This document shows positions 20,821-55,020 of a stretch of 64,000 nt of DNA, piece by piece (within the stretch, counting starts at the first letter, position 1; each line of letters begins with the position of its first letter). The DNA lies in NCBI GenBank assembly GCA_041664925.1, contig JBAYJV010000002.1, positions 8,302-72,301 of the forward strand. Direction: 5' to 3'. The position numbers were made by a program, and so were the translations under genes. The stretch comes from Minisyncoccota bacterium. Lineage in GTDB: Bacteria; Patescibacteriota; Minisyncoccia; JBAYJV01. Under the pieces are notes generated by a model. It was not told where the DNA came from, did not search any database, and worked only from the letters and a program-made list of their open reading frames with translations.

Positions 20821-20977
20821 CCCAACTGCTCGTGCTCTAATCTTCAACGGTTCGATTACTCGATACCTCAGAATAGCGTCAGTTGGGACTTACTACTTCT
20901 ATTATCATTATACTTTAATAAAATCATTTGTCAATAAGGTACTTATACACAATAAAAGAAAATAAATAAATTTTTAC

Positions 20978-30128: not shown

Positions 30129-31028
30129 TCAGGAGCATGTTGCTGCTTCCAGCTGTCCCAGTAAACGGCTGTACTTTGGATGAGCTTCAAGCCACATTCT
30201 AATCTTTTCAAGCGATTCTTTTTCAATCTGACGAGCTCTTTCGCCAGAAATCCCATGCTGTCTGCCTATTTCCTCGAATCCTTGTTCTTCTCTTGAAGGA
30301 TTCATTCCGTAACGCGCCCTTAGGACGGCTGCTTCCCTTTGAGAAAGACCCAAGACCATCGCTTCAGAAATAAGCCTTCTTATAGAACTGTTTCTGATCT
30401 CTTCTCCGACAACTTTTTCTGGAGAAAAAGTTTCATCAATAATACCATTAACTTCAGCGGTCTCATCAGGGTCACTTTTAATGGGCGTGTCTAAAGACAG
30501 CACATCAAAAACTCCAAGAGCGGCGATTAAAGTTTTGGGATTAATCTTATTCTTTCTAGCAAAATCTACTATCGCTATTTCGGTATTACTATTGAGTCTT
30601 GCGTCGGGATGTTCTCTTGCGAATTTGACGATTGACCACTTAATATTTTGAGGCAATCTAATAGGAGAGGATATATCGTGAAGTTTTCTCCCAATCGTAT
30701 CGTCAATCCACCAAACTGCGTAAGTTGATGGTTTGCTGCCTTTTGTTGAGTCGAATTTTGCCGATGAATCGTAAAAAACACGAAGCAAAACTAAATAACA
30801 GTCATGAAGTAAATCAGCAATAGTTTCTTCGTCATTAAAGGTTTGGATCTTTACGAAAATTCTCTTAAGGATTAGCTTGGTCATGCTTAAAACTAAGCGT
30901 GCACAAGCTTCTTTATCGCCATTTCTGGCCTTTTTGGCTAGTTCTAATTGTTCTTCTTTTCTTTGAATTTCTGTGAACAAGCTTTTTTCTGGCATCTGGA
31001 CATGACTCTCAATCGTCGCTAGTGGCAT
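30129..31028 (-). CDS. Sigma-70 family RNA polymerase sigma factor (divergent paralog 1)
   Basis: Region 2 (STYAVWWIDDTIGR) and region 4 HTH (LSQREAAVLRARYGM...EEIGRQHGISGERARQIEKESLEKIR). Confidence 0.75.
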   Translation of the reverse strand: MPLATIESHVQMPEKSLFTEIQRKEEQLELAKKARNGDKEACARLVLSMTKLILKRIFVKIQTFNDEETIADLLHDCYLVLLRVFYDSSAKFDSTKGSKPSTYAVWWIDDTIGRKLHDISSPIRLPQNIKWSIVKFAREHPDARLNSNTEIAIVDFARKNKINPKTLIAALGVFDVLSLDTPIKSDPDETAEVNGIIDETFSPEKVVGEEIRNSSIRRLISEAMVLGLSQREAAVLRARYGMNPSREEQGFEEIGRQHGISGERARQIEKESLEKIRMWLEAHPKYSRLLGQLEAATCS

Positions 31029-31267
31029 TGAACATCCTCCTTTAGAATTTCCTTCTGAATGTAATGAAGAGTAGAAATTCTTAAGCCCTTCCGTAGCTTC
31101 GGCTTGCCCTGCCTACCCTGCCTACCGGCAGGCAGGCGGAGCGTAGAAGGGTAATAATTTTTTAACACTAGACTGTATTTTCATTATTAAAGAACAATAC
31201 TTGCCAACAATACTAACATATTTTTATAAAAAAGCAACCCTCCTACGCACCAGTATAAAAACAATTA

Positions 31268-31385
31268 TCCCTGAAACCCCGCACCAGTATCCTGCAGCAG
31301 AATAAATTCGCTTCAGGACAAGTAAATACGGTGCGGGGTTGTGATTGCGTATTCCTTCATAAATTCAGGAACGCACTCAATAACA
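31268..31385 (-). repeat. ~115-bp composite element copy 1 (minus orientation): TTATTGAGTGCG..CGCAATCA hairpin + long ACCCCGCACC(N~45)GGTGCGGGGT hairpin
   Basis: The reverse complement matches 35041-35156 almost base for base. Confidence 0.5.
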
Positions 31386-31478
31386 AAAAGGAGAGGGAAG
31401 CTTTCTTCCCTCTCTGGTCCCGCTTGCCATGTAGCGAGACGCCCCGAGCACTCCGCAAAGGAGGTTCGACAACGGTGC
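31385..31478 (-). ncRNA. Candidate small RNA D (promoter + intrinsic terminator unit)
   Basis: Minus-sense TTGACA (31507-31512), 16-nt spacer, TACAAT (31485-31490), then ~90 nt ending in GGAGAGGGAAGAAAGCTTCCCTCTCC + T-run (31390-31416). A DnaA-box-like TTATCCACA abuts the -35. Confidence 0.3.
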
Positions 31479-31533
31479 TTCTTTATTGTACCAAACACCT
31501 AGCCTCTGTCAAGAGATATTGTGGATAAGTTAA

Positions 31534-31896
31534 TCAAAGCGTCTTTAGAAAAGAACGAAACTTAAACTTAAAAAAGTATCTTGCGAAGAAAACGCTGATT
31601 GCGACGGGAATTGCTAGGCCGAGAAATGGCGAAACAAGGACAACTGTTCCTCCAAGAATCGTTTTATTGGTGTAGTTTTCCTTCGTAAGTAAATAGATAG
31701 CAAGATCGAATGTAATGTACATCGCAGCGGCTAGATTTAACAGAAGACCGAAGCCGATTGTCGTAATCATTTTCCCTGAAAAACCTGTAAATTGAAGTAT
31801 GATAACCAAAAGAACCGTTTCTATAATCAATGACGGAAAAAGAACTTTATAAATAAACTCTCGCAAAAACTGATCATTCTTATCCTGCGTCTTCAT
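31534..31896 (-). CDS. Small integral membrane protein (120 aa, 3-4 TM); leader-class cassette gene
   Basis: Conserved leader on minus strand (31897-31960) with SD AGAGAGGTG. Preceded further upstream by a CCTGCCTACCGGCAGG hairpin. Confidence 0.5.
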   Translation of the reverse strand: MKTQDKNDQFLREFIYKVLFPSLIIETVLLVIILQFTGFSGKMITTIGFGLLLNLAAAMYITFDLAIYLLTKENYTNKTILGGTVVLVSPFLGLAIPVAISVFFARYFFKFKFRSFLKTL

Positions 31897-31960
31897 GTTT
31901 TCACCTCTCTTAGAGATTCTTGCTGAATGACAGTGAAATTAGAAGCTCTTTACCCTGAGC
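31897..31960 (-). promoter_or_regulatory. Conserved leader instance e (serves 31534-31896)
   Basis: TAAAGAGCTTCTAATTTCACTGTCATTCAGCAAGAATCTCTAAGAGAGGTGAAAAC-ATG. Confidence 0.45.
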
Positions 31961-32266
31961 TTGTCGAAGGGTTAGACCCCGGCTTGCCCTGCCTACCGGC
32001 AGGCAGGCGGGACTACACTTGCAACTCTTTCATTATAAAACAAAAAGAAGGAAAGTCAAATGTAAACCTGTTAACCGTTAAGCGTAAACCGTGAACCGCA
32101 AACCTCGCATTTCGCGATTAACGAATAACGACTAATTTTCTTGCCCTTCCGAAGCCCTGCCTACCGGCAGGCAGGCTTGTGCGTAGGAGGGTTGCATTTT
32201 AATCAAAATGTGCTAGTATCGTTGGCAGTTATCATGGTTCTTTAATATTAACAAAGGAGGGGGGGG

Positions 32267-33256
32267 ATGATTGGACAACTAGAAGTTCTCTATGCTTATT
32301 TCAGAGAAATTAGCAGAACTCCTCTTTTAACCAAAGAAGAAGAAATTGAATTGGCTAAAAAAATTGCTCAAGGAGACAAAGAGGCAAAAGAAAAATTTAT
32401 TAGAGCTAATCTGGGATTAGTTGCTTCAATTGTACAAAGATATAGAGTAAGAGATTCTCATTTAAGTTATTTTGACTTGATCCAAGAAGGAACATTGGGC
32501 TTAATTAGGGCGGTTGAAAAATTTAATCCTTGTAAAGAATGTAGATTTGCTAATTATGCCGCTTGGTGGATTAGACAATCGGTCTTGGTGGCAGTAGCAA
32601 AACATAGTAACAATATTAGATTGCCATGGGATGCAAGACGGTTGGTTTCCAAATTTACAAGAGAGAGTTCTGACGTAGGACTTAGTATGACTAACGGCGC
32701 GATGGCAGATTTTTGCAGAAAACACGCTGGAACCAATCGTAAGATACTAATCGCTGCTCTCGGGGCTTATAATAATATTGTGTGCTTGAATTTATCTATT
32801 GGCTGCGATGACAGTGATGCTATTGAAAGACAAAGCCTAAGAGAGATTCCTATTGAAGAGGATGGATTTGGAGATACCAATACCATAAAAATTGTTCTTG
32901 TTTCTCAAGAAGCAATTTCCTTGATGACCATAATTGGCGATGATGGAGATGCTCCCGAAGAGTATGTTTTAGGCGAGCAAAATCCTCAAGAAGATGAGCT
33001 CAGAAAATTGCGCAAAAAAGAAATCTTAGAAAAGGCGATGAATGCTGTTCTTAATTCTAGAGAAATAGATGTTCTCACCTTGCGATTTGGATTGGGAGAC
33101 ATAAAAGAACTAACTCTTCAAGAAGTAGCAGAGCAATATCATCTTTCTCGAGAAAGAATCAGACAGATTGAAAAAAATGCTCTTGAAAAAATTAAATGTT
33201 ATCTCAGAGCAGAATATGGAGAACGTATTCATGAATTAGCAAGATACCTTGTGTAA
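32267..33256 (+). CDS. Sigma-70 family RNA polymerase sigma factor (divergent paralog 2, with ~100-aa insertion between regions 2/3 and 4)
   Basis: Region 1.2/2 (LTKEEEIELAKKIAQGDKEAKEKFIRANLGLV...IQEGTLGLIRAVEKF...YAAWWIRQ) and region 4 (LTLRFGL...TLQEVAEQYHLSRERIRQIEKNALEKIK). Confidence 0.8.
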   Translation: MIGQLEVLYAYFREISRTPLLTKEEEIELAKKIAQGDKEAKEKFIRANLGLVASIVQRYRVRDSHLSYFDLIQEGTLGLIRAVEKFNPCKECRFANYAAWWIRQSVLVAVAKHSNNIRLPWDARRLVSKFTRESSDVGLSMTNGAMADFCRKHAGTNRKILIAALGAYNNIVCLNLSIGCDDSDAIERQSLREIPIEEDGFGDTNTIKIVLVSQEAISLMTIIGDDGDAPEEYVLGEQNPQEDELRKLRKKEILEKAMNAVLNSREIDVLTLRFGLGDIKELTLQEVAEQYHLSRERIRQIEKNALEKIKCYLRAEYGERIHELARYLV

Positions 33257-33465
33257 AATGGTAAGCGGTCACTAAAGAATAGTGACCGCATTTATAATCC
33301 TTGCTTTTTCTTATAAATGTGTTAATATGGGGACCTAGAATAGTTCTTTAACTTAATGTAGTCCTACGGTCACGAATAAAGTCCTCCTTCACTAAAGTTA
33401 CGGCGGGACGTAAGAATCTTCATTTCTCGTAAACTCGAAAGAATCTTCTAACGGAGGTGGGAAAA

Positions 33466-34320
33466 ATGTTTGAATGGCAAAAAGGAATTAGAAGCTATCT
33501 TAAAGAAATTGGCAAAATTCCTCTTTTAACTAGAGAACAAGAATTTGCTTTAGCTGAAAGAGTTGCCAACGGAGACAAAAAGGCAACAGAAGAATTTGCT
33601 CTAGCGAATTTGCGATTAGTCGTTTCAGTCGCAAGAAACATTCATTATTATTCTCCCACGCTCAGCATGCTCGATCTGATTCAAGAAGGCAATATTGGTT
33701 TAATGAAAGCTATCGAGAAATTCGATCGCCATAAAGGCTATAAATTCTCCACATACGCGAAATGGTGGATTTGGCAAGCGATTTTGAGAGCAATATCGGA
33801 TCATGGTAGAGACATAAGACTACCGTCTCATATACTTGAATCAATTCGCAAGGCTCAAAGGAAAATTTCTCAAGAGAAAGATAGAGAAGAGGATCCAAGA
33901 GATTTAGGAGAAATTCTTGAAGAAGACGGATTGAGCGATGCGAGTATTGTTGGGATTATCTCTGCTACTCGCGGAAGACTTTCTTTGGATGTTGAACTTG
34001 GAGAAGACGGAGAAACTTTTGAAGAATATGCTGATGGCAAGCAACCTTCTCAAGAAGATGAATTTAATGCATTGAGAAAAAGAGAAATCATAAAAGAGGC
34101 GATAAATGAGACTCTTGATGATAGAGAGAAGGATATTATTAACTTGCGATTTGGGATGGATGGGACAAAAGCATTAACTCTTAAAGAAATATCAGCTCTG
34201 CATGATATTAGTCGAGAAAGAATTAGGCAAATTCAAATAAAAGCTCTTAGAAAGATCGGACACTATATTGAAACAAAATATAGGGAGCAAATGACGGACA
34301 TAGAAAAAGCGTTTTTATAG
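33466..34320 (+). CDS. Sigma-70 family RNA polymerase sigma factor (divergent paralog 3)
   Basis: LLTREQEFALAERVANGDKKA...ANLRLVVSVAR...IQEGNIGLMKAIEKFD...YAKWWIWQAI and region 4 (INLRFGM...TLKEISALHDISRERIRQIQIKALRKI). ATG is 5 nt after GGAGGTGG. The ORF track used the GTG at 33457. Confidence 0.8.
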   Translation: MFEWQKGIRSYLKEIGKIPLLTREQEFALAERVANGDKKATEEFALANLRLVVSVARNIHYYSPTLSMLDLIQEGNIGLMKAIEKFDRHKGYKFSTYAKWWIWQAILRAISDHGRDIRLPSHILESIRKAQRKISQEKDREEDPRDLGEILEEDGLSDASIVGIISATRGRLSLDVELGEDGETFEEYADGKQPSQEDEFNALRKREIIKEAINETLDDREKDIINLRFGMDGTKALTLKEISALHDISRERIRQIQIKALRKIGHYIETKYREQMTDIEKAFL

Positions 34321-34377
34321 CAGTTGCTAAGGATTGGTTAAAACTTGACAATGGGTAAAATTCTGTTAGTATAGTAA

Positions 34378-34486
34378 ACAGGAGCGCAGAGGTGATTCTC
34401 GGCGTTCTCTTGACTCCATAACGCTCCATTGGGGAGTATCTTGGTGATTCACACGGAAGGGGAAGATGGCTTTCCCTTCCTTTTTG
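34378..34486 (+). ncRNA. Candidate small RNA A
   Basis: TTGACA (34345-34350), 16-nt spacer, TAGTAT. Then ~105 nt ending in GGAAGGGGAAGATGGCTTTCCCTTCC + T5. Shares the GCG(T)TCTCTTGACTC core with sRNA B. Confidence 0.3.
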
Positions 34487-34532
34487 TTATCTGCGTTTCT
34501 GAGTTAAGCGAAGATTACGCAAATAACAATCC

Positions 34533-34650
34533 TGAGCGAAGCTTGCCCTGAACTTAGTTGAAGGGTCGAAGAATTTATCCTGAGCGAAGTTTGCCCTGAA
34601 CTTAGTTGAAGGGTCGAAGAATTTATCCTGAGCGAAGTCGAAGGATCCTC
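34533..34650. repeat. Tandem repeat, ~54-bp unit x 2.2
   Basis: AATCCTGAGCGAAGCTTGCCCTGAACTTAGTTGAAGGGTCGAAGAATTT / ATCCTGAGCGAAGTTTGCCCTGAACTTAGTTGAAGGGTCGAAGAATTT / ATCCTGAGCGAAGTCGAAGG. Confidence 0.6.
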
Positions 34651-34684
34651 TTGACATAAAATAAAATTCTGTTAGTATTATATA

Positions 34685-34792
34685 CGAGAAACAAGAAAAA
34701 TGCTGGGTTGATACCCAGCGCTCTCTTGACTCACGTTCCATAGTGGAACGTTCCAATGGTTCGGAGAGGGAAGATGGCTTCCCTCTCTTTTT
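34685..34792 (+). ncRNA. Candidate small RNA B
   Basis: TTGACA (34651-34656), 16-nt spacer, TAGTAT (34673-34678). Terminator GAGAGGGAAGATGGCTTCCCTCTC + T5 (34764-34792). Confidence 0.3.
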
Positions 34793-34912
34793 ATTGACTC
34801 TGTTTTTGAATGAAATGAAAATTACAGAGTTAACAACCCCGCACCGTATTTACTTGTCCTGAAGCGAATTTATTCTGCTGCAGGATACTGGTGCGGGGTA
34901 TTTATCCTCTTG
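34793..34912 (+). repeat. Composite element copy 2
   Basis: TTATTGACTCTGTTTTTGAATGAAATGAAAATTACAGAGTTAACAACCCCGCACCGTATTTACTTGTCCTGAAGCGAATTTATTCTGCTGCAGGATACTGGTGCGGGGT. Confidence 0.5.
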
Positions 34913-34941
34913 ACATAGAATAAAGTTTTGATAACATAAAT

Positions 34942-35047
34942 ATTGAGGAAGGTAGCTCCTCACTCCCGGTGTCCTGGCGTCCTCCTGGTGGACGTCCTGC
35001 CACCCGCCGTGCGCTGGAGAGGGAAATAGTTTCCCTCTCCTTTTTTT
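34942..35047 (+). ncRNA. Candidate small RNA C (GC-rich)
   Basis: TTGACA (34909-34914) with a weak -10 (TAACAT). GC-rich body ...GGTGTCCTGGCGTCCTCCTGGTGGACGTCCTGCCACCCGCCGTGCGCTGG. Terminator GGAGAGGGAAATAGTTTCCCTCTCC + T8 (35015-35047). Confidence 0.3.
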
Positions 35048-35156
35048 ATTGAGTGCGTTCCTGAATTTATGAAGGAATACGCAATCAATAACCCCGCACC
35101 GTATTTACTTGTCCTGAAGCGAATTTATTCTGCAGCAGGATACTGGTGCGGGGTTT
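35041..35156 (+). repeat. Composite element copy 3
   Basis: TTATTGAGTGCGTTCCTGAATTTATGAAGGAATACGCAATCAATAACCCCGCACCGTATTTACTTGTCCTGAAGCGAATTTATTCTGCAGCAGGATACTGGTGCGGGGT. Confidence 0.5.
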
Positions 35157-35204
35157 ATTATTGTACTTCGGGGTTTACGCTCTGGTGCTGGTTTTTTTTA
35201 CAAT

Positions 35205-35435
35205 TAAATATCCACCCATATCCATAAATATCATCCGCTCGGGGCGGATAAATATCCATTAATGTCTATGAATTTTAAGAATTATAATTTAAATATTGTT
35301 TCGTATTTCGGATTTTGATATTCGGATTTTATTATATATATAATATTGTAGCTCTGTTTGAGTTATCCACAGAATCTTAGAAAAGTTATCCACAGATTAT
35401 AGGCGCTTTTTCAGGTTTATCACTATCCATGCATT
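35205..35435. promoter_or_regulatory. DnaA-box cluster with adjacent AT-rich tract (oriC-like or DnaA-regulated region)
   Basis: Perfect TTATCCACA at 35363-35371 and 35386-35394 (direct, 23 bp apart). 7/9 or 6/9 matches near 35209, 35221, 35263, 35417 and 35424. AT-rich 35281-35350 (...TTTCGTATTTCGGATTTTGATATTCGGATTTTATTATATATATAATATTG). Confidence 0.35.
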
Positions 35436-35772
35436 CTTTGACAATGATCTAGTTTTTTTGGTAGGATTGGTTATAAAGAAAGAGGAGAAATATATTTCAT
35501 CGCTAACAAAAATTTGTTAGAAACAACAAAATGCATTGTTTGTCTTTGTTTGTAGGGGGGACAAACGGCTCATTTAAAAACCAACACGAGAGAGGATTGG
35601 TTTTTTTTGTTTAAAATCGTTGTGTAGATGTCCGACATCTACAGCCAAGCGAGAAGGAACAGAACCTTAAAAACGGAAAAATTATTTACACTAGTGTTGA
35701 TAATTGATTATTGAAAGTTGAAAATTAATTCGCAAGCTTAGCTAAAAATGTGTGACAACATTAAAGCTTCGC

Positions 35773-35895
35773 GTCATCCTGAGTGTTTCCTGTCATTCCG
35801 CACTTGATGCGGAATCCAGGAAATAAAACAGATTCCTGCTCGCCTTGCTGTCGAAGCAGGCCTATGCAGGAATGACAGGATTATATCAGGATGAC
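35773..35895. mobile_element. 123-bp MITE-like element with nested inverted repeats
   Basis: GTCATCCTGAGTG...CCTGTCATTCC...GGAATGACAGG...ATCAGGATGAC. Inner hairpins TTCCGCACTTGATGCGGAA and CCTGCTCGCCTTGCTGTCGAAGCAGG. Confidence 0.4.
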
Positions 35896-36110
35896 AAACA
35901 TAAAATGGTCGACCACACATCTAAGCTTATTATTGAAAGGTTAATTAACCTTTTCTCTGATTTTCAACGTATCGTAGGGCGTAGTACGAAATACGCAATA
36001 CGAAATACGATTTGAAAAATCGAGAACTTAAATTGATCTTAGTTATGAAAAAAGAATGAAGAAACCAAAGGAGGCTTCTGCATTTCAAAATCATAACTTA
36101 AATTAAAAAA

Positions 36111-37208
36111 ATGAAAAAAGTAATAGCAATTTACACTATCTTAGCAACTATTTGCTGGATAGTAAGCCCAGCATTCGTTGGCGCTATTGATACTGGACTA
36201 ACGAAGGATTCGGGCAGTGGAGCAAACCCAATTGTTAAAGCAAGTTGGGAAATGTATCCATCCGCGACACAAGGACTTAATGGTCGTGATGACTCGACAG
36301 ATCCAGCTTCACAATTTAAGGCATCAGGAATTTATGATTCAGATAAAACCATTCAAGTTTGTTCCATTGTAACAGATACTGATGGCATGACTGACATTAA
36401 TAATGTTTATGCTGATATTTATTATCCAACAGGAATATCGGGAAAACCAGTTCATCCAACTTGGGGATGTGGCAATCCTCATGGTAATGAATTTCTTTTG
36501 AGCCAGCTTCTTAAGGCTGATGGCATAACACTTGTTTGCAACGAATTGCAAAATAGTACTACTAATTCCAACTTAATTACTTGGGAAACAGGTTATAGCT
36601 ATACCGAAGTCTGTAATCCTGACGGAGAGCTAATGAAGGGCACTGCTTATGTGTATTGTGGATCAGCAGTACTTGATTACGAAGACCCATCAGGTGATTA
36701 TCGAACATTAGTCTTAGCTCAAGATAAGAGTGGTAAAAATGGAACCAACGGAACATCAGGACATCCTTTCACTTATCTTGCTACAACTGCTTACGAAGTT
36801 GATTTCAACAAAATCTCTTATGGTGCAGTTAAGTTGGGTACTACCAAAACCATCAATGGTAATTTAGCTTGGGATAGCGTTGGAACCAATAACGCTACTG
36901 TAAGAAATGTAGGAAATACACGATTAGCCATGACGGTACAACAGAACGATATGGGTCTTGGTATGACTGGCTCAGACTATAATGTGTCTTATGGTGCAAG
37001 ATTAGGCAATGATGCCGCATTTGCTCCATACGCTCCAAATGCTGCAGCGAAACAATTATTAGCTGAATTGGATCTTTCATCATCGAATGAAATGGATTTC
37101 ACAATTAATGTGAGTAAATTCCCAGTTACTGGATCAGACACATTCACTGGTACGATGACTCTCGGTGCTGTTTATGTAGATCATCTACTTTCACCTTGCG
37201 AAAACTGA
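36111..37208 (+). CDS. Secreted protein (signal peptide; Thr/Gly/Asn-rich), unknown function
   Basis: N-terminal MKKVIAIYTILATICWIVSPAFVGA signal. First gene of the surface locus. Confidence 0.55.
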   Translation: MKKVIAIYTILATICWIVSPAFVGAIDTGLTKDSGSGANPIVKASWEMYPSATQGLNGRDDSTDPASQFKASGIYDSDKTIQVCSIVTDTDGMTDINNVYADIYYPTGISGKPVHPTWGCGNPHGNEFLLSQLLKADGITLVCNELQNSTTNSNLITWETGYSYTEVCNPDGELMKGTAYVYCGSAVLDYEDPSGDYRTLVLAQDKSGKNGTNGTSGHPFTYLATTAYEVDFNKISYGAVKLGTTKTINGNLAWDSVGTNNATVRNVGNTRLAMTVQQNDMGLGMTGSDYNVSYGARLGNDAAFAPYAPNAAAKQLLAELDLSSSNEMDFTINVSKFPVTGSDTFTGTMTLGAVYVDHLLSPCEN

Positions 37209-37445
37209 ACAGATAATGATATAGGCGGGGGATTTCCAGCGCCTTGATAGGCACGGAAAAATTCCTTCGTGAAGGGGGAGGCTCTCACTGTCTCAATGAG
37301 ACATGAGCGCCTTCTCCGGAGAGGCTTGTGGCTGACCGTAGCCGTTAACCGCGAATCCTCCTTCGTTTCGGTTTAACCGGGACTACGGACGGACGCAGTC
37401 GTTAATCGTGAATCGTCGGCGACAAACTTCTCTGAACATATAATC
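37205..37445 (+). promoter_or_regulatory. GC-rich (~52%) structured intergenic leader between two AT-rich secreted-protein genes; candidate cis-regulatory RNA
   Basis: Multiple stems: TGTCTCAATGAGACA; GCCTTCTCCGGAGAGGC; CCGTAGCCGTTAACCG...CGGTTTAACCGGGACTACGG. Confidence 0.25.
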
Positions 37446-37501
37446 AATATTTAGGAAGTGCGGACTTCCAAAGGAAGACCGACTTCCACTTTAATAAAAC
37501 T

Positions 37502-38455
37502 ATGAAAAAGATTTATTTAGCCATTACATTACTATTAGCTTCAATTTTTGTCTTGCCTCAATTTGCCGGTGCAATTGGACAAGTAACTCAACCAATTGTC
37601 TTAAAGGATGTTTTAAGGGGACAGACAGTCCAAGCAGATTTAATATTGCTTAATTCGGACACAAAAGTTATTACCTATGAATTATCAGCCGAAGGAGCAA
37701 TTGCTAAATGGGCGAAGTTTTACAAGAAAGATGACTCAATTAATCCAATTACGACAATTCAAGTTCCAGCTACAAGCACAATAGGTTGTGTTATAAAATT
37801 AACTATTCCTCAAGATACGCCCAACGGTGAATATAAAGGACAAGCAATGATTACAACCATAGAAACAGAAGGCGAAACAGCAGGAGAATCAAACGCCTCT
37901 ATTAGATTGAGGATTGGAAGAGATATTTCCATTACTATTACAGACCAAGAAATTCTTAAATTCACAGCATTAGTAACCCCCATGAAGTATGTAATTGCAA
38001 GCAACGAATTACTAAAAACGAGAATTATTTACAGCAACCAGGGCAATATTTTAATTAAACCAACGGTTGATTTTAAAATTTTGAAAGATAATCAGGTTAT
38101 TTTTAACGCGATTTATCCTTATCCAGAAGGAGATGAAGGAGTTATTCCTTTTACCCAAAAAATCATCCCTCTAATTGAATGGCCTACTAGTGGACACGAA
38201 AATGGTATGTATCAAGCACAGATTAAAACACTATTAAATGGCGTAGTACAAGGTGAGTATAAATTTGCATTTGAAGTTGGTCGTGATCTCTCTTGGTATT
38301 TGGCAGCGCTTGCTTCAATCGGTCCAGGAAAAGTTGGTTTGATTTTGATTGCGATTGGAATTGTGCTGATTGGGATATTTGCGGTAAGGACATTCGTCTT
38401 TAAAAAAAAAGATTGGGAACTAGCCGCAGGGTTTTTTAGAAACCTATTCTCGTAA
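37502..38455 (+). CDS. Secreted protein with C-terminal TM anchor
   Basis: Signal peptide MKKIYLAITLLLASIFVLPQFAGA. C-terminal LILIAIGIVLIGIFAV followed by a basic tail. Confidence 0.55.
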   Translation: MKKIYLAITLLLASIFVLPQFAGAIGQVTQPIVLKDVLRGQTVQADLILLNSDTKVITYELSAEGAIAKWAKFYKKDDSINPITTIQVPATSTIGCVIKLTIPQDTPNGEYKGQAMITTIETEGETAGESNASIRLRIGRDISITITDQEILKFTALVTPMKYVIASNELLKTRIIYSNQGNILIKPTVDFKILKDNQVIFNAIYPYPEGDEGVIPFTQKIIPLIEWPTSGHENGMYQAQIKTLLNGVVQGEYKFAFEVGRDLSWYLAALASIGPGKVGLILIAIGIVLIGIFAVRTFVFKKKDWELAAGFFRNLFS

Positions 38456-42881: not shown

Positions 42882-42969
42882 ATTTTTCCCACTTCAATTC
42901 ACTAATGTACGAGATTCGACCTCGTACATTTTATATCTTGACAAAAAGAACGGTTTTGATAATATAGAT

Positions 42970-43072
42970 AGTGGCAATCCTGCAACCCACGGATGCTGGA
43001 TGCCAGGGGTAATTGGTACCCCACCGTACCCTCCCGCGCAGAGAGGGAGGACGAGCCTCCCTCTCCCTTTTC
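42970..43072 (+). ncRNA. Candidate small RNA E (same promoter/terminator architecture; shares TCCTGC(A/C)ACCC(A/G)C..GCTGG motif with sRNA C)
   Basis: TTGACA (42938-42943), 16-nt spacer, TAATAT. Terminator GAGAGGGAGGACGAGCCTCCCTCTCC + T-run (43041-43071). The overlapping 72-aa minus ORF is judged spurious. Confidence 0.3.
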
Positions 43073-43152
43073 TTCGATTCATAGGAATTGAAAAAAACAA
43101 ATCCCGCATCACACGATACGGGGTTTTTTGATTGCGTTTCTGAATTATTATT

Positions 43153-43482: not shown

Positions 43483-43683
43483 AATTTGATTAAATTATTG
43501 ACCGATTTGTGTCTTCCTTCTAATCCTATCAAAAATTCAGTCGATTGACAACTAACAAAACAAAACCCACAACGATACAATTTTACATTAAACAACATTA
43601 AAACACGACAGTTGTGGATAAATAATATTGATTAATTAATACAGTTGTATTACAATAGAATTATATCAACTAACTACAATTAT

Positions 43684-43917
43684 ATGCGCCAAGTAATAAG
43701 TTTATCTTTTGCAGAAAATGTCGCCAAAGAGGTTAAAACCCTTTCTAGAAAAAGAGGATATTTTTCTGTTAGTAAATATATTCAAGGATTAGTAGAGATG
43801 GACAAGGAAATCATTTCTGAACAGGAGTTGTTAAGTTCAATTAAACAGTCAAGACAGGAATACAAAAAGGGCAAAGCGATTACTGCTAAATCAATGGCAG
43901 AACTATATGATAATTAA
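43684..43917 (+). CDS. Putative antitoxin of RelE/ParE-type TA pair
   Basis: Small ORF (MRQVISLSF...) overlapping the toxin gene start by 11 nt. Start chosen at the internal ATG. Confidence 0.45.
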   Translation: MRQVISLSFAENVAKEVKTLSRKRGYFSVSKYIQGLVEMDKEIISEQELLSSIKQSRQEYKKGKAITAKSMAELYDN

Positions 43918-44179
43918 GGCTATTTATTATTCTAAAAAATTTCAGCAAGAATTAAAGAAACTGCCAAAAGAAATTGTTAATTTAGCAATTAAAAAAGAAT
44001 CGTTGTTCAGAAAGAACCCACTACACACTTCTTTGCGCCTTCACGAATTACATGTAAAGTTTCAAGGCATTTGGTCTATATCTATAACGGGAAATTATAG
44101 AATCATCTTTGAGAGGATGACTAATGGCGATATCCTGTTCATCTCTATCGGCAAGCACGATATTTATAGATATTTATAA
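43907..44179 (+). CDS. RelE/ParE-family type II toxin
   Basis: 90 aa with ...LHELHVKFQGIWSISITGNYRIIFERMTNGDILFISIGKHDIY, the characteristic RelE/ParE C-terminal pattern. Confidence 0.7.
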   Translation: MIIKAIYYSKKFQQELKKLPKEIVNLAIKKESLFRKNPLHTSLRLHELHVKFQGIWSISITGNYRIIFERMTNGDILFISIGKHDIYRYL

Positions 44180-44249
44180 AAAAAGTTTACTTGCGCAAAC
44201 TTCTTTTGACGGAAGAATGATTTACGGAGGTCCGTCCTCCGTAAATTTT

Positions 44250-46851: not shown

Positions 46852-47472
46852 TTACTTCTGTTTGAAGTCAAAAGTAATCGAGAAACCAGTACTATCGCTT
46901 TGAAAAATATTGCCGCCCAAATGAGCAGGATCAGCTTCCCATTTAACTTTAATATCGGCTGTTTGATCGGCAGAAAGACTGACTTCAGATGACGGTTGAG
47001 AAATTACCCCATTAAGCAAAATTAAACTTTGACTAGAAGAAACAAAGTAAGTTTCTGTTCCATCCAAAACACCATTGCCATCTGTGTCTATCCAAACAGT
47101 CAATTTCAAATAATCATCAAGTTCGCCTTCGCCAGTACCGGGATTTCCGCAAGTTGTGTCTATAAGCGCTTCAGGGGAATTGCAATTGTTTTCTTTATCG
47201 TCAGTTTTATTAATTGTGGCAGCAATAATATCTCCCGTAATTGTCCCAGCGTTTTTTAATCTAATAACGCCGGAATCAAAGTCACCGGGCTTGATATTAG
47301 TAACTTGAATAGGCAAGGTTGTGTTTGGTCCATCTGTTGTCAAATCCAAAGTACCGGCAGCGAAAACATTTGTCGGAGAAGTTTCGGTATCGGTAAAGTA
47401 AGCGCCAGTTGCGCCTAAAACGACGCCAACAATAATAGCGATGAAAGAAAAGGCATTAATAATTTTTTTCAT
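46852..47472 (-). CDS. TasA/camelysin (M73)-like fiber protein with SipW-cognate signal peptide
   Basis: ...GATGAYFTDTETSPTNVFAAGTLDL closely matches the TasA/CalY N-terminus (AAFNDIKSKDATFASGTLDL). Size is 206 aa. Confidence 0.7.
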   Translation of the reverse strand: MKKIINAFSFIAIIVGVVLGATGAYFTDTETSPTNVFAAGTLDLTTDGPNTTLPIQVTNIKPGDFDSGVIRLKNAGTITGDIIAATINKTDDKENNCNSPEALIDTTCGNPGTGEGELDDYLKLTVWIDTDGNGVLDGTETYFVSSSQSLILLNGVISQPSSEVSLSADQTADIKVKWEADPAHLGGNIFQSDSTGFSITFDFKQK

Positions 47473-47484
47473 GGTTTTTATACT

Positions 47485-47648
47485 GTCATCCTGAATATGG
47501 TGAAGGATCCGTGTTTAACAGTTTTTTTCGAGATTCTTCACTTCGTTCAGAATGACACCTTAATTTTATTGTCATCCTGAATGAATGAATGATCCCCGGG
47601 ACTCTTCACGGAGTTTATCCTGAGAAACTTCGAAAGACTCAGAGTGAC
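47485..47648. mobile_element. Two tandem MITE-like elements (47485-47556 and 47571-47648)
   Basis: GTCATCCTGAA...TTCAGAATGAC and GTCATCCTGAATGAATGAATGATCCCCGGGACTCTTCACGGAGTTTATCCTGAGAAACTTCGAAAGACTCAGAGTGAC. Confidence 0.4.
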
Positions 47649-48246
47649 ATACTTTTGTTTAATATTTTATGACAGGAAAACAGATCACTCGACCTTTAAA
47701 ACAAAAAAAGCTCACAAAAAAATGAGAGCTGTTAAACTAATCTATTTCCCCTCCTATCATGATGAAATGTTTCGATGAAATACTTAAGAGAATATTTTAT
47801 CAAATCCTGAAGGTATTTTTCAATGTGGATAACTCATTATTATGTTTCCGAGGTAACGAGGAATTACATAATAATGACCCCGGCACGCCGGGGTTATTGA
47901 TTGCGTAGTTTCTCATTTTATTCGAAAACGCGACACCCTCCTTCACTAAAGTTACGGACGGGTTATTGACTCTGTAATCTTTCGCATAGACTTAAGAATA
48001 GAGTCAATAAAATGAGGGCCTGTTTTTCTTACAGACCCTCGCAATGCATTAGCCCACTATAGAGGTTATTGTGACTCCACTCTTATGATTATACTAAAAA
48101 ATTAATCGTTTGCAATATCTTGGAATTATCCGCCTTAACTAAAGTTACGGCGAGATTATTAACTGTGTAATCTTCGCCTTGCTCAGAAACGCAGTCAATA
48201 AAAAGAGAGCCCGCGCACTTTGCACGGGCTCCTACTTTGAAACTCT

Positions 48247-49287
48247 CTACTGAACGGTTACTTCGTACCGTCCAGTCACCTCCTCTCCGTTAAGAGAGGC
48301 GGTAACCGTCCATGTTCCGGAGTGGAAGAACTTGACCTTGATGTATTGGCCAAAATCTCCCCACACCTTCACGATCTCGAAGTCATCGCCGAGAACCGGC
48401 GACGAATCGCCGCAGCACCAAGCGAAGTCCCAAGAGATCTTCGTCTTGTTGCAGCCACAGCCACAATCTGGCTCCGATGGGCAAGGGACGATACCTTGAA
48501 TTCCGACGCTCTGTTCATCGAAGACATTTCTGCACTGGTCGCATTCATCGAAACACGGCCAGTCGTTGAAGAGAACTGCGATCTCGAATTCATCGTATGC
48601 CGAGACGCATCCTCTCTCCGGTTCCAGACGGTCCAATACGATCGAATCGCATGGGTCATCGCACGGATCGTCGGGACAAGGCGGCGTTGGGTCGCAGCAC
48701 TCCTCAACCTTTAGGGTTGCGGTCTTATATGCGACCGTTCCCGCATCGTCCCGTACCGTCAGGTAAATGGTCTTCGTTCCGGCCGATCCGAATGTGAAAG
48801 TCGTGGACGAGTCGGAACTCACGTGGCCATCACTTGAGGACCATTCATAGGTAATCGGGCGACTGTGTTCGATAACCGCCGATACCCGCGTCGGGATGTT
48901 CTTGCAGACAGGATTGAGGTCGATGTTGATAGACGTAATCCTGACGAACGGCTTCTCTCCGACGGTGATGGTAATCGAGTCGCTTGCCGTCTCGGTGCCA
49001 CACATCCCGCTGTTGGTCACCGTAACCGTTGCAGTGTAGGTGCCAACGTTTTGGTAGACGTGGATTGGGTTCTCTTCGGAACTTGTTCCACCGTCTCCGA
49101 ATGACCATGCGCGCGTCTTATCTGCACAAGTAGTTACGGCACTGAACGCGACCGTCAAGGGCGCGTAGCCGCTGGTTCGATCAGCCGAGACTTCGACTGT
49201 GGGCGGAACTGTCATACATCCGCCCAGACCGAGCGCCAGTACTACGACCAGCGCGCCAAGCAGTACAAACATCCGTCCTCGCTTCAT
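48247..49287 (-). CDS. Lipoprotein with PKD domains and Cys-rich C-terminal domain (GC-rich island)
   Basis: Lipobox LALGLGGC. PKD: GYAPLTVAFSA...WSFGDGGTSSEENPIHVY..GTYTATVTVTN. C-terminal EECCDPTPPCPDDPCDDPCD...CGCGCN...WCCGD. Confidence 0.7.
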   Translation of the reverse strand: MKRGRMFVLLGALVVVLALGLGGCMTVPPTVEVSADRTSGYAPLTVAFSAVTTCADKTRAWSFGDGGTSSEENPIHVYQNVGTYTATVTVTNSGMCGTETASDSITITVGEKPFVRITSINIDLNPVCKNIPTRVSAVIEHSRPITYEWSSSDGHVSSDSSTTFTFGSAGTKTIYLTVRDDAGTVAYKTATLKVEECCDPTPPCPDDPCDDPCDSIVLDRLEPERGCVSAYDEFEIAVLFNDWPCFDECDQCRNVFDEQSVGIQGIVPCPSEPDCGCGCNKTKISWDFAWCCGDSSPVLGDDFEIVKVWGDFGQYIKVKFFHSGTWTVTASLNGEEVTGRYEVTVQ

Positions 49288-49561
49288 TCTGAACCTCCTT
49301 AGGTTCGTATTTGTTTTTTTTGTTTGTGTACATAGGGAATCTTAACTTCCCTTTCTACTATCCATTATAGCATATTAGAACACTAAAGTCAAGGATTTTG
49401 GTGAAATATTTATATTTGTGAACTTAATATGTAAAAAGAAACAATAAATAATATAACTTAAAATTCAAAACTCAAAGCGCAAAACAACAATTTAAAACTT
49501 AAAACTATTTAATTTTTATTAACTATGCAAACAAAAACCCCGTATTGTTTGATACGGGGAA

Positions 49562-50488
49562 TTAGTGATCATTAGTGATTACCCAAAGAACTTTTGGTAA
49601 AACGCTAATCTTGATTGTATTCGTTGGCAATTCAATCGGTTCGCCGTCAACTTGAGCGGAAAGGATGTCATCGTCTTCGTCTTCATCTTCTATAATAATC
49701 TTTATTTCTTTTCCTTCAAATGTGTGTAAACGCGGCAATCTGTCAAGTTTTCCCGTTGTCATTTGAATGACATATTTGAGTCTTTCTTGAAGCGATGGCA
49801 GATCCTCAATTACAAGCAGATTCAAGATGCCATCGGAAATACTGCCCTGAAGATTGATTGGAAAATAAGAACCTTCGCGCTTGCCGTTGTGAACGCCGAC
49901 AAAAAAGGTTTCACCTTCAAAAGCAACTCTACCGTCAATCTCAATTCGCACCTGTCTAATATTGGGATTTTGCAATTCATTAATCATTGGCAGGCCATAG
50001 CGAAGTTCTTTGAAAGGCAATCTTCGAAAGATTGGATGTTTGTGAGCCAAATGATCAATATCTGCATCAATGCCGATACTAAAGACATTCAGGAAGATAA
50101 GCTTATCAACTAGCCCGACATCAGCTTGAATTCTTGCGCCAGACATAAGCGCCTCAAGAGCTTTCTTGGGATTTTGGGGCATTCCAAGAGAAGCAATCGC
50201 AAAATCATTGGATGTGCCAAGCGGCAGAACTCCGAGAGCGACATCTGTACCCATAAGTTCTCGGCCAATGAGATTGACAGTGCCATCGCCGCCACAAGCG
50301 ACAATGATTTTTTCACCTTTTAAAATTGCTTCCTGACAAGCTTTTTGCGCTTCTTCTTGATTATTCGTAATCCTGAAATCAAAGGCGATGCCGCTCTTTT
50401 TAAGCAACGGCAAGATTCTTTTCAAAAATATTTGACAACCAATACTTTGAGATGCGTTTCTATTAATTATAAAGAACATTGAGAACAC
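49562..50488 (-). CDS. Diacylglycerol/lipid kinase catalytic-domain protein (YegS/DgkA-like)
   Basis: ...KIIVACGGDGTVN..., GVLPLGTSNDFA. Conserved leader upstream on minus strand (50489-50556). Confidence 0.65.
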   Translation of the reverse strand: MFSMFFIINRNASQSIGCQIFLKRILPLLKKSGIAFDFRITNNQEEAQKACQEAILKGEKIIVACGGDGTVNLIGRELMGTDVALGVLPLGTSNDFAIASLGMPQNPKKALEALMSGARIQADVGLVDKLIFLNVFSIGIDADIDHLAHKHPIFRRLPFKELRYGLPMINELQNPNIRQVRIEIDGRVAFEGETFFVGVHNGKREGSYFPINLQGSISDGILNLLVIEDLPSLQERLKYVIQMTTGKLDRLPRLHTFEGKEIKIIIEDEDEDDDILSAQVDGEPIELPTNTIKISVLPKVLWVITNDH

Positions 50489-50556
50489 CTCCTTTAGAGT
50501 TTCTTGACGAACGAAGTGAGTACTAGAAAATCTTAAGTCCCGCCGTAGTTCCGGTA
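50489..50556 (-). promoter_or_regulatory. Conserved leader instance f (serves 49562-50488)
   Basis: CTTAAGATTTTCTAGTACTCACTTCGTTCGTCAAGAAACTCTAAAGGAGGTGTTCTCA-ATG, preceded by a GTTCCGGTTTACCGGAAC hairpin. Confidence 0.45.
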
Positions 50557-51174
50557 AACCGGAACAGAGGAGGACAACTTCATTAGCTTATTTAGTCTTG
50601 ACGAGGGCGGACTTTATTTACGACCGTAGGACTACCATCATCTCCACTCATATCTTACTCTTTTGGAGTTTGGTTGCAATGGATAAAACAATTACCCGTC
50701 TACGCTGTCTCCTACGCTAAACCTGCCTGCCCTGACTGCCGTCAGGCAGGCGTCAGGCAGGGCTATGGATGACCGAGGAAAGCTTCGGCAGGGTTATTGA
50801 ATCTGTAAATCTTTCATTATGCTCAAGAACAGAGTCAACCCTGACACCAGAGCAAAGCTCGGTGCAGGGTTTGATTTTCGTTTCCCTTCATAAATTCAGG
50901 GACGAAAATCAATTAAAAAAAGGGACAGAATGAGATTCCTAGGTAAATCTCACCTGTCCCTTGCGCTAGCTAGGCTGCGAAGTTGGCATCACTCTTGCGC
51001 GAGAGCAACGCTTTCCTCGTAGGTTTTGACTGCGGCTCTCTGGAATGAAAGCGCAATCGGACTGAAAGAACTGTGCCATCTCCATACGAGGGAGTTGGCG
51101 GTACTCTACTTTTTCCTGTGCTCTATACGATGGAGCGACAGGGCGACAAACTTACTTGGTTAGACTACCAGATT

Positions 51175-52107
51175 TTACTCCGGGAGGTTGTTGGTTCCGC
51201 GGAAATCAATGAGGTAGCCGACGCTGGTGTGCTGTGGCAACGACGGCCAGTAAGCACCGGTACCAGCCCCAGACTGCAGGTTCAGGGGAACCGTATCAAC
51301 ATAGTTCACGTTATTAGCGAACGTTACCTGATGGGTAATTGATCCGACGACATTATCGGCATCAACTTCCTGATTGTGAGTCGTGTCGGTCGTACCCTTT
51401 GCATTGAAATCCATACCAACCGGGTTGTTCGTGCCTGCTCCGATGTAAGAAGAACCAGAACCGGAAGCGGCGACATCACCCATAAGGGTATTGGAGAGGT
51501 ACTGACAGTAAGACGTCGGCTTAACCATCGTCACAATACCAGCGTCATTCGTTGCCAGAGCGACCTGAGCGGTATGCGTGATGGTCGAACCGGACTGGTT
51601 GAAGAGCACATTCGCGACACCGCCGCCACCAGGGATAATGATCGTAGCATCAAGAGCGCTTTCAACATCGAAGGTGTCGTTCTTGGTGCGGATCGAGACA
51701 TCGTAGTTACCAGCCACGCTGGTGTCGACAAGGAATCCGTTGGTGGGGTTCAATCCGTGCACATCATCGTTCGCGTTGTGTCGGAATCGAATCGCCTGCG
51801 CCTGATTATACCCAGCCGCATCCAGGGTCTGATTATCCAGGTTAAACGTCCCGTAGTAGGGGTTAACCGGAGTAGTCTTTACCTGACTCGTCAGAGTTCC
51901 CTGAGAAATACCGTCAACATTGACGGTCGTCGTTACGGGATTGATGGAGCCAGGGAAGTTGGACGGGCCGACATTTGTGGTAGCGTCGATCTGCATGCTT
52001 CCGCTGTCCATGTACCAAGAATTGGTCACGGTTGCATCCGCAAACGTCGCAACACCCACACCCAACGCCATCACGAGAGCCAGAACACAGATCATTACTC
52101 GCTTCAT
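51175..52107 (-). CDS. Secreted Thr/Asn/Gly-rich protein, unknown function (GC-rich island)
   Basis: Signal peptide MKRVMICVLALVMALGVGVATFA. The 'both strands open' pattern is typical of high-GC coding DNA. Minus strand chosen by signal peptide and SD. Confidence 0.5.
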   Translation of the reverse strand: MKRVMICVLALVMALGVGVATFADATVTNSWYMDSGSMQIDATTNVGPSNFPGSINPVTTTVNVDGISQGTLTSQVKTTPVNPYYGTFNLDNQTLDAAGYNQAQAIRFRHNANDDVHGLNPTNGFLVDTSVAGNYDVSIRTKNDTFDVESALDATIIIPGGGGVANVLFNQSGSTITHTAQVALATNDAGIVTMVKPTSYCQYLSNTLMGDVAASGSGSSYIGAGTNNPVGMDFNAKGTTDTTHNQEVDADNVVGSITHQVTFANNVNYVDTVPLNLQSGAGTGAYWPSLPQHTSVGYLIDFRGTNNLPE

Positions 52108-52305
52108 CGCTTACTCCTTTTGTGATCCGACCTTTTGCCGGATCGGCTTTTTGGTTGGTTTGTTCTTTGCTTCTTTGCTGCTCGCATCTCTACTCAGTCG
52201 ATTTTAAATGGGTCTAATCACCTTGTCTCCTTTCTTCTTGTATGAAGAGAACTTTATCGTCTGAGCATTCTAATCTATTTTTCTTTCTCTGTCAAGAGTT
52301 GTAGA

Positions 52306-53268
52306 TTAGATATTGACGTTGGTTAAGAAAGGAATGTAGGCGACCGCGTAAACACCGTTACCGAACATTCCGCCAACATCAATAATGAAGCCGACGAAGT
52401 CATGATCCGGGTCTTGGTCAGTATTTCCAAACCACCAGTAATTCCAGCGTGCCTGAAAAACTTTAACGGCATCGTCCGGAATTGGCGGTAAGGAGAATCT
52501 GATCGTCGTCGTTTCTCCGGGCTTGAGGGTAATTCTGCCAAGACTATTGCTGTCCTGCCAGAACCATGTTCCCTTATTCCAGTCATCTTTGATATCGGGA
52601 TCATTATAGAAACGACCTTCTGGAACCCAATCGGCCCAGTAAGACAGTCCAGCTGTAACGGTTGCAGGCCCCTTGATCACCTGATTGCCGGTATTCTTGA
52701 GGGTTACGACCAGCTCCATATTCTCAATTTTCCACTCCAGAACCTTCATAGATTTTCTTGGAGATGGATTACTGTCGCGCTCATTAAGCGAAAATCTACC
52801 ATTAAGGTAGAGCCAAACGCTTCCTGAGCAAGGATCAACGCCGCCAATATAAATTGCTTCATCAATATTTCCAGTTCCACTGAAAGACGAACTTAGCGAG
52901 ATCGAGGAAGTCAAAGTAGAATTATTCATAATTCCAAGTTCAATATCAAGCTGTCTTTCAAGGGTCACAGAATCGGATCCAAGAGTTAATTGCTGGCGAA
53001 GATCAAGAGAATAGAGACTAGTAGCTAGAATATTGTCAGTTAAGAGATTATTGGGCGGACATCCGCAATCATTCACATTAGTGAAAATACCTGCGGTTCC
53101 GGTTCCAAAGATTCTCAGGTCAATGAAACCTTGATTTTCGATGCCGAAACTTAACCAAGTTTCTTCGGTGAAAAGATCTGTCGTGTGACTAGCAAAAGCA
53201 GCCACAGAAGAAATCAACACAACCCCCAACAACCCAACCAACAACATCTTCGACGCTCTGTTTCGCAT
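52306..53268 (-). CDS. Secreted protein, unknown function (GC-rich island)
   Basis: Signal peptide ...LLVGLLGVVLISSVAAFA. SD GGAGAGGG upstream. Confidence 0.5.
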   Translation of the reverse strand: MRNRASKMLLVGLLGVVLISSVAAFASHTTDLFTEETWLSFGIENQGFIDLRIFGTGTAGIFTNVNDCGCPPNNLLTDNILATSLYSLDLRQQLTLGSDSVTLERQLDIELGIMNNSTLTSSISLSSSFSGTGNIDEAIYIGGVDPCSGSVWLYLNGRFSLNERDSNPSPRKSMKVLEWKIENMELVVTLKNTGNQVIKGPATVTAGLSYWADWVPEGRFYNDPDIKDDWNKGTWFWQDSNSLGRITLKPGETTTIRFSLPPIPDDAVKVFQARWNYWWFGNTDQDPDHDFVGFIIDVGGMFGNGVYAVAYIPFLTNVNI

Positions 53269-53545
53269 ATCCCTCTCCTTTTTTCTTTTTATGAATGCGT
53301 TTGTAAAAGAACTTTAACATCCTAGCATACAAAAATATAATTGTCAATAGCTGATGATAATTTGATGCGATTAACCCTGAAGTACAATAAATTGACTTCA
53401 GGATTATTGACTGCGTAATCTTCGCTGTTAATGTATTATCCTCCTTCGCCAAGGCTTCGGAAGGATTTTAATTTTGTTTCTCTTTATAAATTCAGAGACG
53501 AAATTAAAAAATAGCCAGTATGCTTTTCATACTGGCTAAACGAGA

Positions 53546-54592: not shown

Positions 54593-54604
54593 TTTGTACC
54601 TCCT

Positions 54605-54787
54605 TTAGGTACCTTCTGTTTTTGTTGCTTCTTCTTCTGGAATATACCATTCTATACCAGAAAGATCCATTACGTTAAGAAAAGCACAGATAAATTCTCT
54701 TAAAAGAGAACGAATCTTCAAAATTAAACCAACAAGAACTGTAAAGAAGAGTATCAACAACCACCCCCACCAAGGCATATTTTTCAC
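54605..54787 (-). CDS. Small membrane protein (60 aa)
   Basis: MKNMPWWGWLLILFFTVLVGLIL... with SD and conserved leader (54788-54850). Confidence 0.4.
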   Translation of the reverse strand: MKNMPWWGWLLILFFTVLVGLILKIRSLLREFICAFLNVMDLSGIEWYIPEEEATKTEGT

Positions 54788-54850
54788 CTCTCTTAGAGTT
54801 TTTTCTTGAGTATAACGAAAGTAAAAAACTCTTATATCCTGAGCGAAGTC
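54788..54850 (-). promoter_or_regulatory. Conserved leader instance g (serves 54605-54787)
   Basis: TATAAGAGTTTTTTACTTTCGTTATACTCAAGAAAAAACTCTAAGAGAGGTGAAAAAT-ATG, preceded by GTCCTTCGACTTCGCTCAGGA (as upstream of instance b). Confidence 0.4.
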
Positions 54851-55020
54851 GAAGGACTTATCCTGAGTTTATCGAAGGATTAATTTTTTCAAGTACTACC
54901 TCCCTTGTATCATAATATAAGTGCTGTGTCAAGAGATTTAGCCTTTAATAACAGATTTTAAGGCAAAATCAATTAAAAATGGCACTACTTCTTTGTAGTG
55001 CCAAAAGAACTGAGGAACTT

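Follow-up and report, generated by a model that had tools for sequence, protein, structure and literature searches.

The source of the 64-kb DNA stretch analysed here (the window) is an uncultivated bacterium of the Candidatus Paceibacterota, within the Candidate Phyla Radiation (CPR; Patescibacteria); the sigma factor and the 365-aa protein encoded on either side of the site match proteins of an NCBI metagenome-assembled genome of that group at 100% identity. A non-coding region of 1.8 kb (34320-36111) separates the last of the three sigma-70 paralogues from a series of genes for secreted or surface proteins. It holds, in order, three small-RNA-like units, each with its own promoter and terminator, an element made of ATATC repeats and a hairpin, an A+T-rich tract, a pair of DnaA boxes, a promoter that we call P2, and a 139-nt transcript. 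No Rfam family, at gathering or E-value thresholds, and no tRNA was matched in 34320-36111. The original prediction had read the boxes and the A+T-rich tract as a chromosomal or plasmid origin of replication, and had offered as an alternative that DnaA regulates transcription of the neighboring genes for a small RNA and surface proteins; the comparative evidence favours that alternative.

Two copies of the perfect DnaA box TTATCCACA stand on the + strand, box 1 at 35363-35371 and box 2 at 35386-35394, direct and 23 bp apart from start to start, as had been described. The unit of this repeat is an identical 13-mer, AGTTATCCACAGA, around each box, and the G...G flanking both paired boxes is the same as in E. 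coli R1 (GTTATCCACAG). We found six perfect boxes in the window (31520 -, 35363 +, 35386 +, 43613 -, 47824 - and 58376 +), about one per 10 kb, where 0.44 are expected, and none of 100 dinucleotide-preserving shuffles gave six. All six are in non-coding DNA, which makes up 22.6% of the window (P ~1.3e-4). The three further single boxes listed earlier all exist; two of them start one base away from the positions given (the true starts are 31520 and 47824), 43613 was correct, and the box at 58376 had been overlooked.

One-mismatch boxes number 25 in the window against 17 expected. Within 250 bp at the site, the boxes with at most one mismatch are the two perfect ones, the nearest one-mismatch box being 300 bp off at 35695, and the density of boxes with at most two mismatches is not above that of coding DNA. 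The degenerate boxes of the original prediction (ATATCCACC at 35208, ATATCCATA at 35218, TTATCCGCC at 35243 on the - strand, and three 3-mismatch sites) are present but do not rise above background: the site has five boxes with at most two mismatches in 250 bp, and so does coding DNA at 38 kb and at 41.6 kb. A better description of those at 35208-35262 is a set of ATATC repeats, phased at 10 bp about a small G+C hairpin, an element taken up below. The spaced pair GTTATCCACAG-N12-GTTATCCACAG also occurs in metagenome contigs that have no relation to the window, at least 119 of them. Most of these have a third box in the gap, forming tandem arrays with a period of 11-12 bp, and a crude motif test found a DnaA-like open reading frame (ORF) in 6 of the at least 119 contigs.

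Promoter P2 (35438-35467, + strand) reads TTGACA-18-TAGGAT with TG before the -10, and is kept in the related species L088 at 11902-11931, where a promoter scan recovers it. The two boxes of the pair are 43 and 66 nt from the P2 -35, on its upstream side: box 2 ends 43 nt from the hexamer, box 1 spans about -111 to -103 relative to the inferred P2 start, and both are the same in L088, at 11851 and 11828, respectively. Closer to the promoter, a weak box with three mismatches (CTATCCATG, 35423-35431, + strand; CACTATCCATGC in L088) stands 6 nt upstream of the -35, in the slot that perfect boxes hold at other promoters. The predicted product of P2 is a small transcript or 5′ leader of 139 nt (35474-35612, + strand) with three hairpins, the final one followed by a T-run as a weak terminator; it has a fold z-score of -2.8 and no Rfam match. 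This transcript is probably non-coding, because its substitutions relative to L088 do not fit a coding pattern. Small ORFs within it were considered and rejected: in a 27-codon frame 4/4 substitutions are non-synonymous, and the other frame has no ATG in the window.

We examined the other perfect boxes of the window for neighboring promoters. All four, together with a one-mismatch box, are 0-8 nt upstream of a sigma-70-type -35. The box at 31520-31528 (- strand) belongs to a small-RNA promoter on the - strand (TTATCCACA-7-TTGACA-16-TACAAT); it had been noted before as adjacent to the -35 of a small RNA, and lies 7 nt upstream of the hexamer. The box at 43613-43621 (- strand) precedes a + strand promoter (TGTGGATAA-6-TTGATT-17-TACAAT) that drives an antitoxin/YafQ-like toxin pair (43685-44180, + strand). 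At 47824-47832 (- strand) the box abuts its -35 (TTATCCACA-0-TTGAAA-18-TAAAAT) upstream of a - strand gene for a camelysin-like (M73) peptidase, and at 58376-58384 (+ strand) it serves a promoter on the - strand (TGTGGATAA-5-TTGCTA-17-TAAAAT). The one-mismatch box, TTATACACA at 20943-20951 (+ strand), lies before a perfect consensus promoter on the - strand (TGTGTATAA-8-TTGACA-17-TATAAT). Over all Paceibacterota loci retrieved, a promoter-like -35 is found 0-8 nt away from 11/19 perfect boxes, compared with 3.1% for arbitrary positions (P ~2e-12); with orthologous sites collapsed, the figure is 8/14 (P ~2e-9).

The box at 31520 and its offset (7-8 nt) are kept in L088, L091 and L095, making four species with the window, although the spacer bases differ and the whole unit inverts between species. 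The inversion can be followed by comparing 31385-31896 with L088 9180-9690, where a 120-aa gene, the DnaA box downstream of it and the small-RNA gene are flipped as one unit. By this comparative evidence, consensus DnaA boxes are selectively maintained at fixed promoter positions.

L088 has the same gene order around the box pair, with a sigma factor protein that is 74% identical, and allows the site to be compared part by part. Identity is 98% in the block with the box pair (35351-35396), including 36 consecutive identical bases, falls to 57% in the 24-nt spacer after box 2, the lowest of the module, and is 85% for the weak box with P2 and 91% for the P2 transcript. Neighboring genes are 69-90% identical at the nucleotide level, and constraint on the pair, P2 and the transcript is therefore stronger than on the surrounding coding DNA. 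The pair, the weak proximal site, P2 and the transcript make up one conserved module. Two contigs from the same species (L001 and L002) are 100% identical over the module, hence uninformative. In a third species, L094, the arrangement after the sigma gene differs, and a single reversed box stands 8 nt from the -35 of another small-RNA promoter.

Downstream, a conserved two-gene unit (36111-38455, + strand) codes for a secreted beta-sandwich protein of 365 aa and a second protein of 317 aa, and is followed by the gene for a giant VWA/SdrD protein. This unit is probably what the promoter region with its boxes ultimately controls. As a pair, the 365-aa gene and a partner of ~320 aa are widespread in Paceibacterota (>200 homologues, 45-54% identity). 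The 365-aa protein has no Pfam family; its predicted structure (predicted local distance difference test score, pLDDT, 86.6) has a signal peptide and beta-sandwich domains, and a fold search gave just weak beta-sandwich and pilin-like matches, from which no function was derived.

Orthologues of the 365-aa protein that are 49-54% identical were used for a box comparison, with the window and L088 counted as one lineage. In 5/6 lineages the spacer upstream of the gene (270-1,800 bp) has one or more perfect boxes, for which chance is ~3e-12. The L215 spacer has one perfect box; that of L216 has two, one of them in the form TGTGGATAA-6-TTGACA; L221/L222 has one, as TGTGGATAA-5-TTGACA; and L223 has one, as TGTGGATAA-6-TTGACA, together with a 1-mismatch box. 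The gene neighborhood of the two-gene unit is different in every lineage, several of the loci placing it next to type IV pilus-like genes, and no dnaA or dnaN occurs in any of five orthologous loci of 16-21 kb. Boxes that move with the two-gene unit into unrelated neighborhoods are therefore as expected of a promoter operator, not of an origin.

We read the box pair, with good though not full confidence, as an upstream operator of the sigma-70-type promoter P2, one of a set of promoter-proximal DnaA boxes in this genome, and not as a replication origin. Given their place upstream of promoters, the most likely role of the boxes is to couple expression of genes to the replication initiator. That DnaA regulates transcription from boxes within promoters is established, e.g., for dnaA, nrdAB and sda, and at E. 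coli nrdAB low occupancy by DnaA gives activation and high DnaA-ATP gives repression (PMC8203912). The site has the sequence-level features of a DnaA-regulated promoter, with consensus boxes upstream and both box and position conserved across species. As at the DnaA-regulated promoters of E. coli (dnaA, nrdAB) and B. subtilis (dnaA-dnaN, sda, ywlC, yydA), consensus boxes lie upstream of sigma-70-type promoters, strong boxes are combined with weaker sites, and output is expected to depend on DnaA level and bound nucleotide (PMC8203912). Unlike in those two species, several promoters here share a fixed box-to--35 offset of 0-8 nt with the box in either orientation and, in place of replication or nucleotide genes, serve small RNAs, a toxin-antitoxin pair and genes for proteins that are secreted or at the surface. 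In the literature searched, no paper dealing with transcription under DnaA control in Patescibacteria came up.

A mechanism can be proposed on these lines. DnaA would occupy the two high-affinity boxes and, as active DnaA rises, cooperative binding would reach the weak box, 6 nt short of the -35. DnaA in this -35-adjacent slot would then alter recruitment of RNA polymerase at P2, whose product, a leader or small RNA, may be extended by read-through of the weak terminator into the surface-protein operon. A box centered near -46, fixed upstream of the -35, would fit activation or an occupancy-dependent dual control like that of E. coli nrdAB. The result would be small RNAs, a toxin-antitoxin pair and surface proteins coupled to the status of the replication initiator.

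Several observations weigh against a promoter operator at this site. The box pair itself is off the canonical -35-adjacent offset, which only the 3-mismatch site fits. The end of the P2 transcript is ~500 nt from the operon, and read-through via the weak terminator is only proposed. The A+T-rich tract, 93% identical to L088, and the ATATC/hairpin element are not accounted for by the promoter model, and for this reason we leave a small probability to origin-like unwinding and to titration of DnaA. The boxed promoters are already near consensus, which would obscure a sign of regulation. No box was found in the spacer upstream of the 365-aa orthologue in L219/L220 (Staskawiczbacteria). The fine-scale comparison of the module rests on the single close relative L088 and is hence shallow, and the host dnaA is outside the ~80 kb examined.

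The last point bears on whether oriC has been relocated away from dnaA, so that DnaA bound at the pair melts the neighboring A+T tract. Two direct perfect boxes do adjoin a tract of 85% A+T with a short tandem repeat, both are strongly conserved in the second species and inside a long non-coding region, and an oriC far from dnaA has a precedent in E. coli (PMC8287927). The likeness to the oriC unwinding module (BUS, or the unwinding element with R1 in E. coli) extends to the tandem consensus boxes, the A+T-rich tract with short repeats beside them and the R1 flanks of GTTATCCACAG; the differences are an A+T tract on the opposite side, missing trios, no switch of strand or skew, and no replication genes nearby. 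We accordingly regard an origin here as very unlikely, and the origin claim of the original prediction is not upheld. Its observation that the window has no dnaA or dnaN agrees with our Pfam scan, and neither gene occurs in the ~80 kb made up of the window (Pfam, ORFs of at least 290 aa) and the flanks (gene lists, 8.3 kb left and 7.8 kb right), the same ~80 kb to which the following tests of strand and skew apply. Between -8.3 kb and 34 kb the + strand carries about 50/55 genes, and it also carries those at 36-43 kb, so that + strand genes flank the site for 44 kb on the left and 7 kb on the right; an origin at 35.3 kb would therefore set ~44 kb of genes head-on to replication. Cumulative GC skew is in mid-rise at 35.3 kb, without a minimum, a test that is weaker than that of orientation since total skew here mostly tracks the coding strand. 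Third-codon-position skew mainly reflects codon usage and says nothing about the direction of replication; the measure used instead was intergenic skew, at +0.04 left of the 1.8-kb region, +0.08 inside it and +0.035 right of it, turning negative only past 43 kb.

The internal structure of the site also argues against an origin. The E. coli unwinding element is 5′ of TGTGGATAA, whereas the A+T tract here is 5′ of TTATCCACA, so that polarity is reversed. We verified the E. coli order, 5′-13-mers...TGTGGATAA(R1)-3′, as a 100% match at a single site between mnmG and mioC in 5,425/5,426 complete genomes. Orientation matters at known origins: reversal of the proximal boxes inactivates B. subtilis incC (PMC6669920). 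The bacterial origin unwinding module (BUS) has one or more DnaA boxes, a spacer of at most 16 bp, at least three DnaA-trios (NAN) and A+T-rich DNA (PMC8287927). Past box 2, which is the correct side, none of the three frames has more than two NAN trios in a row, where the rule requires at least three within 16 bp, and the segment where trios would sit is the 57%-identical one, the least conserved of the module. There are just two boxes with at most one mismatch in 250 bp, the boxes relocate with the operon into different neighborhoods, and TTATCCACA is common here, which the original prediction had itself named as a reason to drop the origin. Removing this false call shows that two perfect boxes and an A+T tract are insufficient to name an oriC. 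A dif-like terminus site was looked for and not found. A terminus at the convergent strand switch at 43 kb was considered and rejected; the - strand block there is 24 kb long, and + strand genes resume at ~67 kb.

A DnaA reservoir or titration site, which mainly buffers or recycles DnaA in the manner of datA, DARS or the B. subtilis clusters, is another possible comparison for conserved intergenic boxes far from the origin. Two high-affinity boxes with weak sites, conserved and outside an origin, would suit it, and the many boxes at 31-58 kb could jointly titrate DnaA. The E. coli datA site has about five boxes and an IHF site, and the core boxes of DARS are oppositely oriented. Here, unlike in datA and DARS, there are just two strong boxes, both direct, with no IHF-type element identified and with clear promoter geometry. 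The fixed box-to--35 offset is a transcriptional signature that titration does not need, and we hold titration as the main role to be improbable; it is not mutually exclusive with promoter control, and the two may coexist. We give similarly little credence to a 9-mer whose likeness to a DnaA box is coincidental, bound by some other lineage-specific factor or acting as an extended promoter element for one of the three adjacent sigma-70 paralogues. The offset to the -35 is very regular, which is unusual among described DnaA-regulated promoters, and three sigma-70 paralogues are encoded next door. Yet the motif agrees with the universal DnaA box at 9/9 positions, the pair even has the R1 flanks, and DnaA is near-universal among bacteria; occurrence in both orientations and at offsets of 0-8, 43 and 66 nt fits a separate DNA-binding protein rather than an element contacted by sigma. 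That the pair is a functionless chance occurrence of 9-mers in an A+T-rich spacer has a negligible probability. The degenerate boxes and the promoter-like match within the A+T tract are indeed at chance level, but the excess of perfect boxes over expectation and shuffles, the 36 consecutive identical bases beside a spacer of 57% identity, and the recurrence of boxes upstream of orthologues (P ~3e-12) are not accounted for by chance.

Returning to DnaA acting at promoters, a broader form of this reading is possible, and is put forward tentatively: DnaA might be a general promoter-proximal regulator in Paceibacterota, acting from a consensus box, in either orientation, that precedes the -35 by 5-8 nt and coupling small RNAs, a toxin-antitoxin module and a secreted-protein operon to the status of the replication initiator. 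The box pair with its weak proximal site would then be a graded, cooperative form of the same switch. CPR bacteria have very few recognisable regulators, and conserved boxes at a fixed distance from the -35, before surface-protein genes and small RNAs, suggest that DnaA doubles as a significant transcription factor in reduced genomes. The stereotyped spacing of box and -35, recurring across promoters and lineages of a regulator-poor phylum, makes this, on the sequences compared, what we would call a moderately interesting feature.

The A+T-rich tract (35265-35350) is 85% A+T over 80 bp; on the strand that reads TTATCCACA, it is 5′ of the boxes. It contains TTCGGATTTT twice (35307 and 35321); the tract and both copies had been predicted and are present, while the longer 11-mer given for the repeat is exact in the first copy only. 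The tract is notable but not unique, with four to eight other stretches of the window equally A+T-rich. A promoter inside it (TTGATA-18-TATAAT) was rejected, the match being missing at the L088 counterpart, and so was a - strand small RNA over it, which is without a convincing -35 hexamer and without structure (z = -0.28). Structured RNA was looked for in the tract and found on neither strand.

Just upstream is the ATATC element (35205-35264, 67% identical to L088), in which ATATC is repeated at a 10-bp phase (35208, 35218, 35228 and 35252) around a G+C hairpin (35233-35249). The hairpin stem varies compensatorily between species (ATCCGC/GCGGAT versus ATCATCC/GGATGAT). ATATC-N5-ATATC is found four times in the window against 0.19 expected, and similar ATATC/hairpin elements occur at 11648-11700, 8930-8994 and 9720-9790 in L088 and at 955-1000 and 1880-1905 in L094. 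Such an element may be a dispersed site of protein binding, judging from this distribution.

The small-RNA-like units form a family of ~100 nt, with members at 34345-34490, 34651-34800, 34910-35050 and 42930-43075 (+ strand) and at 31512-31385 (- strand). Each has a promoter of the TTGACA-N16-TAGTAT type with TG and a near-identical terminator, GGAGAGGGAAGATAGCTTCCCTCTCC followed by a T-run; the family has no Rfam match. One copy was found in L088 and one in L094. Long hairpins of the form AACCCCGCACC...GGTGCGGGGTT are repeated 3′ of small-RNA units (34831-34904, 35085-35163, and 31345-31275 on the - strand), with an appearance like that of repetitive extragenic palindromes (REP). Between two of the units is a 48-bp tandem repeat (34529-34637) with two full copies, 98% identical, and 13 nt of a third.

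Another conserved non-coding block (35721-35940, 84% identical to L088) is found downstream of the P2 transcript and ahead of the 365-aa gene. It includes a hairpin with 27-nt arms (inverted repeat 35773-35799 / 35869-35895), and may belong to an extended structured 5′ leader. The leaders of orthologous units (L216 4560-4838, L221 9760-10001, L223 7760-7984 and, partly, L215 9860-10001) share the motif ...AACTTTAGTTTTT...GTTGTTTTTTGTTATCC..AAAGGTCGAAGTTG...GGGTGAAAGATT..., a candidate cis-regulatory leader RNA; that form is missing from the window.

The three sigma-70-family paralogues are encoded in tandem (30129-34320; 299, 329 and 287 aa). A set of 5.8 billion proteins contains just four close relatives of the last one (73-100% identity), and a scan of genome contigs with the adjacent sigma factor gave as best matches 48%-identical housekeeping sigmas from other phyla, so that those contigs do not include this species. 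Farther to the right, a block of - strand genes extends from 43 to ~67 kb (right flank, L226) within an otherwise + strand region; the M73 peptidase genes of L088 are on the + strand downstream of the VWA gene, indicating an inversion between species. Two segments (6000-10000 and 47000-56000) have a G+C content of 0.41-0.49, against 0.33-0.39 elsewhere, and may have been acquired; a gene with a Bro-N domain is at 1537-2418.

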